From: Eledone cirrhosa
Lineage: Eukaryota
DNA: 64,000 nt
NCBI GenBank assembly: GCA_964016885.1
Contig: OZ024741.1
Span: 16,926,001-16,990,000 of the forward strand
Direction of reading: 5' to 3'
The notes under the pieces: model-generated
The model's database searches: none
What the model was told of the DNA's origin: nothing
Seen by the model: the letters and a program-made list of their open reading frames with translations, nothing else
Part shown: piece after piece, positions 37,358 to 57,650 of the stretch
Layout: the number at the start of each line of letters is the position of its first letter
Numbering within the stretch: position 1 is the stretch's first letter
Position numbers and translations under genes: made by a program

Positions 37358-37578
37358 GGAACGAGTAGGACCCCGACGGCTGAGCTCAAGCCGTTTCGAC
37401 GGCTAATTCTGGACTACAGAATTAGCCGTCGAAATTAGCCGTCCAGAATTAGCCGTCGAAACGGCTTGAGCTCAGCCGTCGGGGTCCTACTTGTTCCTAT
37501 TTCCCACTCTACTACCCTAAGTATTGAGTACTTTGGTGCGTTATGGTCCACCTGGTTCTTTACCACATTTCCTTCGTT
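37358..37578. mobile_element. (TA)n-inserted fold-back element, family B (only the 3' half of a hammerhead retained)
   Basis: Inverted arms ~37358-37417 and 37441-37499; homologs at 52553-52693 and 57469-57650. Confidence 0.8.
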
Positions 37579-38055
37579 ATATATATATATATATATATAT
37601 ATATATATACATACACCCATATGCATATACACATATATACACAGGTATAAGCATATATATGTATATAAGAACGGAACACACATACGCATACACAGACACA
37701 CACACATTCACACACACTCAGACACACACACATATATATGCACAGACACACACACAAACACACATATATTTATATATATATACACAAACATACACAGACA
37801 CACACACACATACAGGCATACACAGACACACACACACATATATATATATACTTATGTATATATACACAAACATACACACACACATACATATATATATACA
37901 TATATACACACACACACACATATATATATATATATACATATATATATATACACAAACATACACACACACACACACACACACACACACACACACACACACA
38001 CACATATATATCAAGGGAGAAAGGTCCGCGCATTCAGTGCATGCGCTATAGAATC

Positions 38056-38232
38056 TTGAGTTGATCAAGCAGAATTTTATCTGCTTACTAAATCGTAGAC
38101 ACATAAAAAGATAACACACACACACACACACACACACACACACACACACACACACACACGACAGCTTTGGGGCAAGCAGAATTTTGACTGCTTACTAAAT
38201 CGTAGACACATAAAAAGATAACACACACACAC
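38056..38232. repeat. Local ~50-bp direct duplication, each copy followed by (CA)n
   Basis: CAAGCAGAATTTT..CTGCTTACTAAATCGTAGACACATAAAAAGATAACAC at ~38066 and ~38174. Confidence 0.8.
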
Positions 38233-38514
38233 ACTAGATAACACTACATGCGGCTTTGACCGGGAGGGTGATTTAGAGGGAATGGGGGGGGGGGGGGGGG
38301 TAAGGCTGCACAACCCCACTTTCCGCCTTGGTGATTGGACTGCATGCCCTGCTTTCCAGGTTATCCATCGCCACTGATATATATATAAATATAGATTTAC
38401 ATATACATAAACTAGACAGAGCCATAGATATATATATGTGTTTTGGGCATCAATTCCCGGTGTGGCTCAATGACGAATTAATTAATTAAATAATCAACAA
38501 TCAGAGCAATATAC

Positions 38515-38579
38515 AAGAAAGTACGTCCATAGAATCATTTGATATATTTTATCAAATGATTCTATGGACTTACTTTCTT
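38515..38579. repeat. ~30-bp inverted repeat (hairpin) next to (CT)n(TA)n
   Basis: AAGAAAGTACGTCCATAGAATCATTTGATA-short loop-TATCAAATGATTCTATGGACTTACTTTCTT, one mismatch. Confidence 0.85.
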
Positions 38580-38685
38580 CTCTCTCTCTCTCTCTCTCTC
38601 TCTCTCTCTCTCTCTCTCTATATATATATATATATATATATATATATATATATATATATATACAATATATTAATATAACCATATT

Positions 38686-38756
38686 TATTTTATTATACTA
38701 TACATATTTCAAGGGCCACCAAGGCAAATTATGGTGCGCTTTCATCAGATAAAATA
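38686..38756 (-). ncRNA. Type I hammerhead ribozyme (family A copy 38662-38829)
   Basis: Minus: UAUUUUAU-CUGAUGA-AAGCGCACCA...UGGUGGCCCUU-GAAA-UAU..GUA-UA-AUAAAAUA; 5-bp duplication in the stem III region. Confidence 0.75.
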
Positions 38757-38885
38757 CAGATTTGTTTTATAAATAAATATTGACATACCCGGAAAAAAAG
38801 GACAACCTTAACGGTTGGAGCTTCCTGGACACACACACACACACACACACACACACACACACACACATATATATATATATATATA

Positions 38886-39108
38886 TATATATATGTAGGA
38901 GGTGAGTTTTATTGTAGTTCAATAAAGCGATGCAGATATCGGATAATATGTTGATTTAAAACTGCACTATCCACAAGTGTTTTTAACCTTCATATCATGT
39001 CTTCCTATTTTATCTGATGAAAACACAAATGTTATTGCATGATGATATTTGTTTTTGAAATGCGCATAATAAAATACATGGAACTCATTTAACCATCTTT
39101 TGATCTTA
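38886..39108 (+). mobile_element. (TA)n-inserted hammerhead element, family G
   Basis: Unique island between TA tracts containing a complete hammerhead. Confidence 0.75.
39006..39076 (+). ncRNA. Type I hammerhead ribozyme (family G)
   Basis: UAUUUUAU-CUGAUGA(39014-20)-long stem II-GAAA(39057-60)-UGCGCA-UA-AUAAAAUA; perfect 8-bp stem I, palindromic stem III, AUA site. Confidence 0.9.
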
Positions 39109-39472
39109 TATATATACATATATATATATACTCAAACACACACACACACACACACATATATATATATGTACATATATATATACACAAACATACACACACA
39201 TATATATATACACACACACACACACACACACACACAAACATACACACACACACATATATATATATATATATATACACACACACACACACACAAACATACA
39301 CACACACATATATATATATATATATATACACACACACACATATATATATATATATATATATATATATGTGTGTGTGAATGAAGTAATTCCGCCTGAAAGG
39401 TCCAGCAAAAAAGAGTGCTCTATGTAGGTTACAGAGCTTATTAGTTATGTAATAAACAACATAAGATAATTA

Positions 39473-54730: not shown

Positions 54731-54771
54731 GCACCTACGTACGTTTCGTTCAGTTGGGCTTGTCAAGGGCA
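54731..54771 (-). ncRNA. Variant hammerhead (UUGACAA core), left arm; stem II damaged
   Basis: Minus: UGCCC-UUGACAA-GCCC aacu GAAC-GAAA-CGUACG-UA-GGUGC. Confidence 0.55.
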
Positions 54772-55163
54772 TAAATAACCAAAAGTGCTCGGAAAGTGTT
54801 TTGGGGGTTAAGTTCACGTCATATTTCATTCTTCGCAAAAAAAAGCGTGTTTTGATTTTGCAGTAGGTCAAGAGAGGTAACTCTGACCGGTGTTAGGGCA
54901 GTCTTTCCCGGACAAATTTTTTATCCGTTACAAGATGTGGTTACAACCTTACCATTTCGATACGCACAGGGTCAGACAATCAACGCTTATTTTGAGATGT
55001 TTGTTTTCCGCACCTGCTCGCCTGGGTCGTTTGAGGCTGGGTCTGGGATGCATGGTTAGTTTCCTGGGTTTTTTTTGCAGCACCTGCCCACCGGGGTTTT
55101 AAAGCTTGTTGCAGGGAGACTCGGTATACGGTTTCACTCCTCATCCTTAACCCATCTGAAGAA

Positions 55164-56182
55164 CCAACACCTTCCTGTACATAAACACGGAAGAAGGAAG
55201 AAGAGTGCACCCGAGCATAAAGTGAAAAGGGCACGTAACGGGCTACAGCGCATTAACATACATAAGAACGGTCACCTTGATGGAACCACCCGTAGCAAAC
55301 GTACAAGGACACGTAATCGCCACCGTAACGTCCTACGGTTCCACCCCCCTTACTCTCGGAGTGTGGCCTCCAACATACCCCGGATATTCTTCGAAGCCTT
55401 AGAGAAGAACTTCCCGCCCAACCATAGGTATAGAAAACTTCTTAATAGGAACAATATAAAAATATCCATTCTCTACTACTCCTAACCTAGCAGACATCAT
55501 AGGACAACGAACCACAGTAAGATCACCAAGACACAGCACCTTAGCACAGACGCACCTACACCTGACAATAACTATATCGACCTTAACAACACCCTAGCAG
55601 CATCCAATAGTGCTGGCAACGGCCTCTCCAGACGCAACCAGCATAACCGCGACGTGACTGGGGAACATGTAGGACATGACGTGCAGAATAATAATCGTAC
55701 CACCCCGCGCACTGTGGGTTGTAATGGTGCTAACGACAGGTGCGGGAGCGTAGATAACAACGTAGATAGCAACACTGATAGCCTAACCGTGGGAAGTGGA
55801 AGGAACCGCGACAGAAATTGCAACTGCCGCGACAGGGGACGCTGCCCCCTTAGGGGGGGGGGGGGCTACCTCCGGCCCGTTCAAAATTAGATTTCGAACA
55901 CATCTCCACTCTGTCACAAATAAGAAATTAAGACACTCCACTTCGTTCGCGGACTACATCACATCATTAAAAGACTTAAACATCAGCTTCTCCACGCACT
56001 GGGATATTGTCGGAAGGGCTGCCCCGTACAACTTCAAGAGGAAGTGCGATCTTTGCCTCATGGAGCTCTACCACATCATAACTGCATCCCACGAGCTCAT
56101 CAACAGCAGAGCTGAAACGACGATAAGTTGTACACATCGCTTAAAAATATCCTTCTTCAGATGGGTTAAGGATGAGGAGTGA
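55164..56182 (+). pseudogene. Frameshifted C-terminal linker plus GIY-YIG endonuclease region of a Penelope-like element (no RT)
   Basis: Motifs RNVLRFHPPYSRSVASNIPRIFFEALEKNFPPNHRYRKLLNRNNIKIS, frameshifted FSTTPNLADII, CNCRDRGRCPL, GPFKIRFRTH..HSTSFADYI..LKD..WDIV..AAPY..KCDLCLME..LINSRAE..CTH are typical of this PLE EN type. Frameshifts near 55467, 55500 and 55850. Confidence 0.85.
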
Positions 56183-56554
56183 AACCGTGTACCGGGACTC
56201 CCTGCAACAAGCTTTAACACCCCGGCGGGTAGGCGCTGCAAAAGAACACCCAGGAAACTAACCATGCATCCCAGACCCAGCCTCAAACGACCCAGGCAAG
56301 CAGGTGCGGAAAAAAGTCTCAAAATAAGCGTTGATTGCCTGACCCTGTGCGTATCGACAATGGTAAGGTTGTAACAACATCTTGTAACGGATAAAAAATT
56401 TACCCGGGAAAGACTGCTCTAACACCGGCCAGAGTTACCTCCCTTGACCTACTGCAAAATCAAAACACGCTTTTTTTGCGAAGAATGAATTATGACGTGA
56501 ACTTAACCCCCAAAACACTTTCCGAGCAATGTAAGGAACACTTTTGGTTATTTA

Positions 56555-56595
56555 TGCCCTTGACAAGCCCAACTGGGCGAAACGTACGGAGGTAC
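56555..56595 (+). ncRNA. Variant hammerhead (UUGACAA core), right arm; cleavage triplet damaged
   Basis: TGCCC-TTGACAA-GCCC aact GGGC-GAAA-CGTACG-GA-GGTAC. Confidence 0.55.
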
Positions 56596-57148
56596 TGTTT
56601 TAAATAAACATGTTTTAACGGTCTGTTCTCCGATTTCTTACTTTTCCACGTGTATATATATATATATATATATATATATATATATATATATATATATATA
56701 TTATAAAGTGTCGGGACTCAACTCAAATTCTTTACTTATACTTTAATCTGTACTTCCGGTTCCAACTGGAGAGAGGACAATACGATGAAATAACTACAAA
56801 ATGCTGACTGTTTCGGAGTAATGCGAGGTAACTCGTGCATGAAACAGACTCTGTTATCAACACTACCTAATATGGTCTTATTCTTACATATCTAAAGTAT
56901 AATTTATATTAATTATCTACACACACACACACGCACACAAACACACACACACACACACACACACACACAGACACACACATAAACACAGACACACATACAC
57001 ACACATATATATCTATATACATATATATTATATATATGATATATATATAATACATATATATACATATATAGAGGCACACACACACACACACACACACATG
57101 TATATGTATATATATATATATATATATATATATATATATATATATATA

Positions 57149-57420
57149 TGCAAAAGTTCTATTTAAATTGTTGGGATACAACAAGCAAATATTTTTATAA
57201 CTGATATAAAGCACTCGACAAGTATTTGGAGTAGATATACGATATTAACAAATGGAAACTATATTTATAAAACCATATCTATTTTATTATACATATTTCA
57301 AAGATACCATGTTAAATTATGGTATGCCTTCATCAGACAAAATACAATATATACCAGTTTTATAAATAAACATTGACGTACCCTTTCAAAATGTAACCAT
57401 TACTTTTGGAAGACATCGGG
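57149..57420 (-). mobile_element. Diverged family A copy in (TA)n
   Basis: Colinear with 40667-40888. Confidence 0.85.
57280..57344 (-). ncRNA. Type I hammerhead ribozyme (family A, diverged)
   Basis: Minus: UAUUUUGU-CUGAUGA-AGGC AUACCAU loop AUGGUAU CUUU-GAAA-UAUGUA-UA-AUAAAAUA. Confidence 0.82.
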
Positions 57421-57468
57421 ATATATATATATATATATATATATATATATATATATATATATATATAT

Positions 57469-57650
57469 AACGAAGGAAGTGTGGTAAGGAACCAGGTGGA
57501 TCATAACGCACCAGAGTACTCAATACTTAGGGTAGTAGAGTGGGTAATAGGAAAATGTATGACCCCGACGGCAGAGCTGAAGCCGTTTTGACGGCTATTT
57601 CTGGACGTCGAAACGGCTTGAGCTCTGCCGTCGAGGTCATACATTTTCCT
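57469..57650. mobile_element. Fold-back family B element in (TA)n
   Basis: Reverse-orientation homolog of 37358-37578, with inverted arms. Confidence 0.8.

Follow-up and report, generated by a model that had tools for sequence, protein, structure and literature searches.

How two inverted copies of one element come to be joined, always facing the same way, is the question raised by a 64,000-nucleotide stretch of the Eledone cirrhosa genome (contig OZ024741.1; below, the window), in which short fold-back islands lie against (TA)n tracts. A preliminary description of this DNA took the strand of the ribozyme or of the ORF as the RNA sense, found eight inverted elements to run minus in the left arm and plus in the right, and proposed that both cut strands of the target had primed reverse transcription. 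Our analysis of these islands and of further copies in the genome indicates that they are, or are likely to be, ends of Penelope-like elements (PLEs). As judged from sequence comparison, they most probably arose (probability roughly 0.7) when both strands of the target primed reverse transcription as a pair, at two fixed sites on RNA from one source copy, and the two cDNAs were then joined.

Polarity and paired ends of the fold-backs

The window belongs to a 3.0-Gb assembly rich in (TA)n, from which we fetched three samples: 180 loci taken in order of their similarity to six families of the window, 138 unselected 10-kb blocks (1.38 Mb), and 20 additional family B loci. Same-family inverted pairs were compiled in two sets, one of 213 pairs mapped with family references (15 family labels, duplicates removed, 70 of the pairs from the unselected blocks), and one of 231 direct neighbours found with a cleaned library in which family C was included. 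The 3' ends were classed in 188 pairs of ten families, 165 of which had both ends classed. The family references extend just 75-375 nt upstream of the ribozyme seeds. The sense strand was set by the hammerhead cores in families A, C and D, by the core of a solo copy (minus 36559) in family F, and by the plus-strand ORF in the window PLE (family P). Family B was oriented via longer copies with a whole ribozyme (L068, L083, L089, L175, L226, and L127); these supply the 5' half, the window B copies holding the 3' half only.

Mapping to the family references reproduced the described polarity in all eight elements, though in the B copy at 52551 the left arm, a short one, mapped only in part, and added two non-overlapping pairs of the same polarity that had been missed (38892-39113 and the diverged 45866-46031). 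The same polarity was found beyond the window: all 213 mapped pairs are head-to-head, and so are the direct same-family neighbours of the larger set, with 71/71 in the unselected blocks, 160/160 at the other loci, and no tail-to-tail pair (231 against 0) instead of a random mix. Arms parted by a microsatellite are of mixed polarity (4 against 3 in the unselected blocks, 2 against 6 at other loci). In a very young subfamily of family C, the minus block lies on the left in 11/11 arrays listed with both strands. A structure-aware scan of the unselected blocks returned 82 ribozyme motifs, compared with 0 in shuffled DNA, and 42 motif clusters were counted across all loci. The density of 70 pairs in 1.38 Mb extrapolates to roughly 150,000 in the genome. 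The polarity described for the fold-back islands is confirmed. Not every island is a fold-back, as solo arms of both end types exist.

Head-to-head polarity is a known trait of PLEs and occurs also at non-TA targets. Complex PLE insertions with an inverted, 5'-truncated pseudo-long terminal repeat (pLTR), a trait named in the preliminary description, and with a one-sided tail are published (PMC3846280; PMC8557442), and the head-to-head layout, the one-sided tail and the targeting of (TA)n are all already on record for PLEs. Craig et al. reported the same layout with a (TA)n bias and left the mechanism of the tandem and inverted structures and of the tail undefined, stating it as unsolved (PMC8557442); the present genome offers a very large natural record of such insertions. 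The self-complementarity of (TA)n had been put forward as what lets both strands prime. Priming from both strands remains the most likely course, but the self-complementary target is not the cause of the polarity, because rotifer Penelope elements with 9-10 bp target duplications are equally head-to-head (PMC3846280).

The rule that goes beyond the published accounts concerns the outer ends. Every family shows two 3' ends with sharp modes, a short one and a long one, separated by 26 to 160 nt. The arms do end at unequal distances, as described, but at two fixed ends per family instead of a scatter. Among the classed pairs, 161/165 combine a long with a short end (3 are short-short and 1 is long-long); the figure is 91/95 without query bias (p 2e-22 against 50%), and in family C all 17 scorable insertions have one end of each kind. 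The long arm lies on the left in 89 and on the right in 72 pairs, and therefore either strand takes either site. Short ends close with 1-6 nt of TA-like sequence. In family C, 12/17 short-end junctions lose the C beside the AU tract, which is why a fixed start site fits better than free pairing. A hairpin of the form ACTC...GAG starts no more than 5 nt from the short end in 7/10 references, a count with no shuffled control for comparison. Of 41 unselected long-short pairs, 32 have TA at both outer ends and 40 at one or both; a target-site duplication would be hidden in (TA)n.

Source and geometry of the two arms

The preliminary description had suggested that the two arms of an insertion come from two templates, in which case they might fall into different subfamilies. 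Haplotype and re-pairing tests gave sisters instead. In family B, both arms carry a common haplotype in 31 of the 66 pairs read, and 30 of these 31 are concordant (permutation mean 13.2, maximum 22); none of the young B pairs unites the two common haplotypes with differences at both diagnostic sites, and a search with a third B haplotype found no match. The arms of A, B, D, and G are closer to each other than re-paired arms are (p 0.0005 or less). Variant 278A of family C is present in both arms of 3/19 insertions and in no arm of the others (p 3.5e-4), and rare alleles are common to both arms in L173, L176, and the window D element, the last with an allele absent from 44 other arms. The arms do differ by substitutions, as had been described, but mostly by changes private to one arm: both alleles are common elsewhere at 3/23 differences in the window PLE and at 0/6 in the window D. 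The shared haplotypes therefore indicate sister arms from the same source copy, not two templates from a mixed pool.

These results bear on the proposal that two separate RNAs, each primed from one (TA)n strand, are joined by a dimer of the palindromic stem III of their hammerheads. A palindromic stem III is found in C, D, F, and P, and that of A is almost palindromic, but in family B stem III is long and self-contained and needs no partner, a symmetric dimer does not predict one long and one short end, and ribozyme mutants of the anole element still insert in vitro (PMC11167929). Two RNAs in general would be in keeping with the few B pairs that differ at one haplotype site and with three joins between families (L150, L249, and L281, against 231 same-family pairs), of which L150 and L249 again unite a short with a long end; these joins could, however, be back-to-back independent insertions, L150 and L249 having a short fold-back stub at the junction. 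We consider two RNAs joined in this way unlikely, and the preferred reading can do without such a dimer. The joins of unrelated ribozyme families lie at L150 1044-1645, L249 7168-7487, and L281 5381-6035. Elsewhere, L134 224-1642 seems to pass from one family into an inner stretch of the F ORF. Separate lineages of long and short arms were also considered and rejected, as among the sites listed one was arm-type-specific, a CpG in F enriched by query ranking.

The inner extent of the arms provides a second line of evidence. Of the 161 long-short pairs, 79 have arms with 5' ends within 10 nt of each other, 18 have a short arm contained in the long one, 50 have a short arm that extends past its partner on the 5' side by more than 10 nt, and 14 have a tail-only long arm with no overlap between the two. 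The 77 pairs at least 92% identical to their reference are divided alike (39, 13, 20, and 5, respectively). In the window, A, F, C, and the PLE are non-nested, and the pair at 38892-39113 is non-overlapping. With the short arm further 5' or the overlap missing in 64/161 pairs, the long-ended arm is not the sole template, and each arm would therefore need its own priming on RNA. Two PLE copies (L152, L153) carry within the ORF an inversion whose two parts are separated by an 8-nt gap instead of overlapping, as in classic twin priming.

This geometry contrasts with the published self-priming (snap-back) model, proposed from palindromes at inverted junctions (PMC3846280), in which an antisense template or the first cDNA primes on itself and resolution by the endonuclease, an idea found in PMC8557442, leaves a one-sided tail. 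Self-priming accounts for sister arms and mirror-position variants with no added assumptions, and agrees with palindromic junctions (L107, L122, L125, and L139) and with fillers that are short local inverted copies. Yet the copied arm must lie inside the template arm, so the model is contradicted for the non-nested class (40 against 5 without query bias), and foreign fillers between the arms fit the joining of two ends. Paired ends, non-nested arms, and sister arms together contradict self-priming, which we regard as quite unlikely.

Paired priming with subsequent joining agrees with the central junctions, 75/77 of which are distinct among young pairs. Microhomology of at least 2 nt, which the preliminary description had suggested looking for, is present in 55% of 33 filler-free junctions (17% in the null, p 1e-7), and overlaps of at least 4 nt in 27% (2.6% in the null). 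Apparent filler at 44 further junctions is partly foreign (L069, L074, L085, and L087), partly a short local templated copy (L043, L045, L053, L147, and L255), and partly family sequence beyond the reference. Fillers and distinct junctions point to the joining of two ends and not to amplification of whole fold-backs as units, either as DNA miniature inverted-repeat transposable elements (MITEs) or as retroposed hairpin RNAs. A few junctions do recur (in F, at L122, L125, L139, and the solo F of the window; in B, two coordinates twice), but with so many distinct ones this cannot be the main route. Lengths range from about 130 nt to several kb, a contig over the D junction has depth 6 compared with 1,000-44,000 for parts of its arms, and no same-strand A-to-G signature of hairpin RNAs was found among the 213 pairs at the threshold used. 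Moreover, MITEs have fixed symmetric termini and one internal sequence, whereas asymmetric ends, distinct junctions, and solo arms are found here. Unit amplification is thus very unlikely, and the earlier characterization of these elements as MITE-like but retroposed agrees with their PLE-type ends and distinct junctions.

The inner ends gather at strong, family-specific hot spots and lie for the most part 5' of the predicted ribozyme cut. In reference positions, the hot spots are B 250-262, F 596-600, D 286-292, and G 85-95; those of B, F, and G lie inside or just upstream of the ribozyme and off its cut, and may mark a structural stop or the start of the RNA. The idea that ribozyme cleavage usually sets the inner end was rejected, given that 4 of 165 arm starts within 40 nt of the cut lie within 1 nt of it. 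Single clear starts at the predicted cut are seen in B (L144) and in C (L093, L105, at the cut or 1 nt off). Nothing seen by eye, short of a formal test, suggested that the long cDNA collides at the short site. Some fold-backs have been duplicated along with their flank (L257 269-671 in tandem, L268 692-1287 inverted).

An assembly artefact from chimeric palindromic reads, conceivable where palindromes in microsatellites are hard to assemble, is hardly credible, because it predicts identical arms and random polarity, against 213/213 head-to-head pairs, family-specific paired ends, private substitutions, and fillers, and because a 62-nt contig of depth 6 (run X1) spans the D junction with one other letter. 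This contig has 30 and 29 letters to its two sides, just under the 31-letter bridging rule, run X1 may not be independent of the assembly, and the contig was not seen among the pieces listed for runs X2 and X3.

Several observations weigh against paired priming on RNA of one source copy. The 79 pairs with 5' ends within 10 nt fit all models alike, four pairs break the long-short rule, and 23/188 pairs have an unclassable end. Within an insertion, the 5' ends are uncorrelated at 10 nt tolerance (40 against 38.6 expected) and weakly correlated at 3 nt (28 against 21.3, p 0.007), so that a single shared RNA 5' end is not supported. The sister test was negative for F (p 0.82) and P (p 0.42), and in f3 and A3 it rested on 4 pairs each. 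In F, 9/18 pairs differ at one CpG site, which may reflect decay and query ranking or two templates, and the B pairs L330, L072, L050, L309, and L338 differ at one haplotype site. There are nine direct joins of different labels, including the three ambiguous cross-family ones; the other six involve related subfamilies or complex neighbours and were left out of account. Gene conversion between arms, or activity of one haplotype at a time, can also make sister arms, and variants at mirror positions fit arm-to-arm copying as well as one multimeric RNA; such unit-private variants are seen in both arms of the C arrays L095 and L101. In addition, the alignment limits how far some 5' starts can be traced in diverged subfamilies, and the apparent fillers that are family sequence lie past the reference limits. 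Finally, reads mapped to 49700-53400 came mostly from other copies, and no empty allele was seen among them. In another C array (L120), a variant occurs in alternate units, possibly from a dimeric template.

Insertion route, element identity, and known systems

Under the preferred reading, paired priming at two fixed RNA sites, the element endonuclease would cut both strands of (TA)n, as suggested by the anole element (PMC11167929). Of the two cut 3' ends, one would prime at the long and one at the short site; the pairing of ends is observed, and its cause might be a protein dimer that couples the two primings. Each cDNA would be extended 5' up to a stall or to the end of the RNA, after which the cDNA 3' ends would anneal via a few bases or filler, and each would template the second strand of the other. 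A long cDNA stopping inside the tail would give an L1-like inversion, one passing the short site a fold-back, and a failed priming a solo arm. Acting on multimeric or circular C RNA, this reaction would produce head-to-head arrays, and the ORF-less families and the tandem family C would be mobilised in trans. One RNA, with displacement through the overlap, seems marginally likelier than two RNAs of one source. More tentatively, and at somewhat less than even odds, coupled twin priming by one dimer on one RNA at two fixed sites 26-160 nt apart may be the normal reaction, and may also have produced the multi-kilobase retrozyme arrays and fold-backs of the order of 100,000. If this is true, the inverted pLTR and the one-sided tail would be two signs of one reaction. 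The prediction for the existing in vitro system is an anti-correlation between the start sites used on the two strands of a single target.

As for the identity of the elements, family F continues upstream, in other copies, on the ribozyme strand into a PLE ORF, and family P likewise carries an ORF. Motif reading assigns to both a thumb, a linker, and an endonuclease-like part, and one F-family copy (L148) has reverse transcriptase (RT) core motifs. A protein search with the F ORF scored 150 genomic matches with 87-100% identity; Pfam gave no match on the P or F pieces and a weak GIY-YIG match (E 0.057) on a related family. The CxCX5C linker before the endonuclease is present in the window P and in F, CxxC and CxH motifs flank the conserved E and N in copies of P (L159, L178) and F (L303, L146), and RWR and DKT-like N-terminal motifs occur in related families (L200, L281); RWK and DKT motifs are not present in the fetched P or F copies, which are truncated. 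The ORF of the window PLE (55486-55890) has an asparagine/threonine-rich linker between thumb and endonuclease, which recalls the N-rich inserts of rotifer Penelope. By their C-terminal protein motifs, P and F match the Hydra clade of PLEs, for which the CxCX5C linker, the CxxC and CxH motifs, hammerheads, and (TA)n insertion are described (PMC8557442). The placement is by motif, from truncated copies of P and F that lack the N-terminal part.

Type I hammerhead motifs with stems were predicted in A, C, D, F, f3, and G, together with a variant core in B and a degenerate one in P. Families A, B, D, G, and others are ORF-less in the fetched DNA, their likely kinship to PLEs being one of layout. 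The fold-backs of F and P are therefore shown to be PLE ends, and those of the other families are likely to be. Family C consists of non-coding 310/311-nt periodic arrays with one type I hammerhead per unit and fits a non-LTR retrozyme. Its young subfamily forms head-to-head arrays of 311-nt units of up to about 7.6 kb in which nearly all units are identical, among them G000 C18:1190130-1197754, C3:221699006-221705604, and C10:28738462-28743633; these arrays are good candidates for current activity and insertion polymorphism. Metazoan non-LTR retrozymes share the non-coding tandem unit with one type I hammerhead (PMC7229834; bioRxiv 10.64898/2026.07.22.740005). The C arrays differ from them in being head-to-head and several kb long, with PLE-type paired ends; in the text searched, the former source makes no mention of inverted copies or of orientation, and the latter none of a head-to-head arrangement, orientation or a tail. 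Insertion anatomy would tie tandem retrozyme arrays to the PLE machinery. Automated repeat annotation could mistake these families for MITEs or microRNA hairpins, and microRNA models match three of the fold-back families, below threshold.

Twin priming of LINE-1 was reportedly modelled by Ostertag and Kazazian in 2001, and in L1 inversion affects a minority of insertions, with a second site that varies and little duplicated sequence. The insertions described here, and above all the 14 non-overlapping pairs, would resemble it in that two target ends prime on RNA, the cDNAs join by microhomology, and the 5' part is inverted (bioRxiv 10.1101/2024.12.14.628481). Unlike in LINE-1, the second site here is a fixed one, and in most cases the arms overlap so as to form a fold-back. 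In the literature searched, to which older subscription papers do not belong, we found no paper proposing twin priming for PLEs.

The closest experimental system is the Poseidon element of Anolis, for which Frangieh et al. reported that both strands are cut and extended, that synthesis starts at two internal sites bounding the tail, and that targets are AT-rich, and for which a dimer is predicted (PMC11167929). It belongs to another clade, its two strands were scored separately, so that the pairing of start sites within one event is absent from the data, and the inverted copy is not discussed in the part of the text that was searched. With the complex insertions of endonuclease-bearing (EN+) PLEs, the present elements share the inverted 5'-truncated copy placed head-to-head, the tail at one end, partial tandems, and the 3'-end hammerhead. 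They differ in that most are stubs without an ORF, 130-700 nt long and very densely spread, in tails of 26-160 nt compared with the published 30-40, in a one-tail pattern that is near-obligate, and in an arm geometry that contradicts the published self-priming model.

Elements and repeats of the window

The coordinates of the elements are collected in Table 1.

Table 1. Elements mapped in the window, in order of position, with their arms and structural details.
Feature	Position	Arms	Remarks
Solo F arm and solo A arm	36426..36863	F minus 36426-36570; A plus 36623-36863	(TA)n between
Family B fold-back	37355..37579	short-end minus 37355-37416; 24-nt filler; long-end plus 37441-37579	filler mostly copied from B; (TA)n on both sides; single arm difference, at CpG
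Further solo arms	38635-38829, 39371-39623, 49450-49611, 57149-57423	all minus	
Family f3 pair	38892..39113	tail-only minus 38892-38946; short-end plus 38946-39113	ribozyme core 39014; no overlap, hence inversion without duplication
Family A fold-back	40663..41073	long-end minus 40663-40888; short-end plus 40888-41073	short-end arm 42 nt further 5'; cores 40852 (minus), 40966 (plus); junction overlap 1 nt
Diverged family G pair (less certain)	45866..46031	short-end arm minus; tail piece plus	
Family F fold-back	50188..50349	long-end minus 50188-50296; short-end plus 50295-50349	short-end arm 12 nt further 5'; overlap 2 nt
Family C fold-back (310-nt tandem unit, one hammerhead)	51276..51984	short-end minus to 51695; long-end plus 51696-51984	minus arm of 1.4 units; cores 51435 (minus), 51784 (plus); arms have in common a variant absent from every other fetched insertion
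Solo family f8 arm with hammerhead	52113..52531	minus	Rfam HH9 match 52316-52387, E 3e-6, below gathering score
Older family B fold-back	52551..52692	short-end minus; long-end plus	tail of long-end arm cut short
Family D fold-back	52756..53201	both arms with short end	one of the 4 exceptions to the long-short rule; cores 52864 (minus), 53093 (plus); central junction 52986/52990
Detached family D tail	53442..53533	plus	240 nt right of the D fold-back
Further fold-back	53539..53915	53539-53603 and 53719-53783	right arm extended; polarity from tail only; no second copy in fetched DNA
5'-truncated PLE (family P)	54515..56652	long-end minus 54515-55163; plus 55164-56652 with short end	plus arm with broken RT-thumb/linker/endonuclease ORF; degenerate hammerhead in each arm
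Family B fold-back	57468..57652	long-end minus 57468-57606; short-end plus 57606-57652	

The detached D tail may record a long-site cDNA that jumped to flanking DNA at the tail hairpin. Before it come (TA)31 and 16 nt that repeat, in inverted form, the end of the neighbouring B element (52677-52692), and the inverted B copy and the tail meet at a shared 4-nt word (regions 52677-52760 and 53372-53533).

Among the Rfam matches listed for the window (150 of 308), one sub-threshold hammerhead was found, the rest being microRNA models on repeats. Two small palindromes are present in addition to the elements of Table 1, a 64-nt fold-back of a repeated family (38515-38579) and a TA-centred inverted repeat with a unique-looking flank (40537-40602). 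Other abundant short repeats with no detected ribozyme, some of them tRNA-like by eye, lie at 29152-29214, 44059-44398, 49755-49930, 59084-59129, and 61103-62006. The left part of the window (1-28516) consists of about 28.5 kb of a 34-bp satellite, and minisatellites of 20, 16, 30, 24, 27, and 18 bp occur up to 61002.

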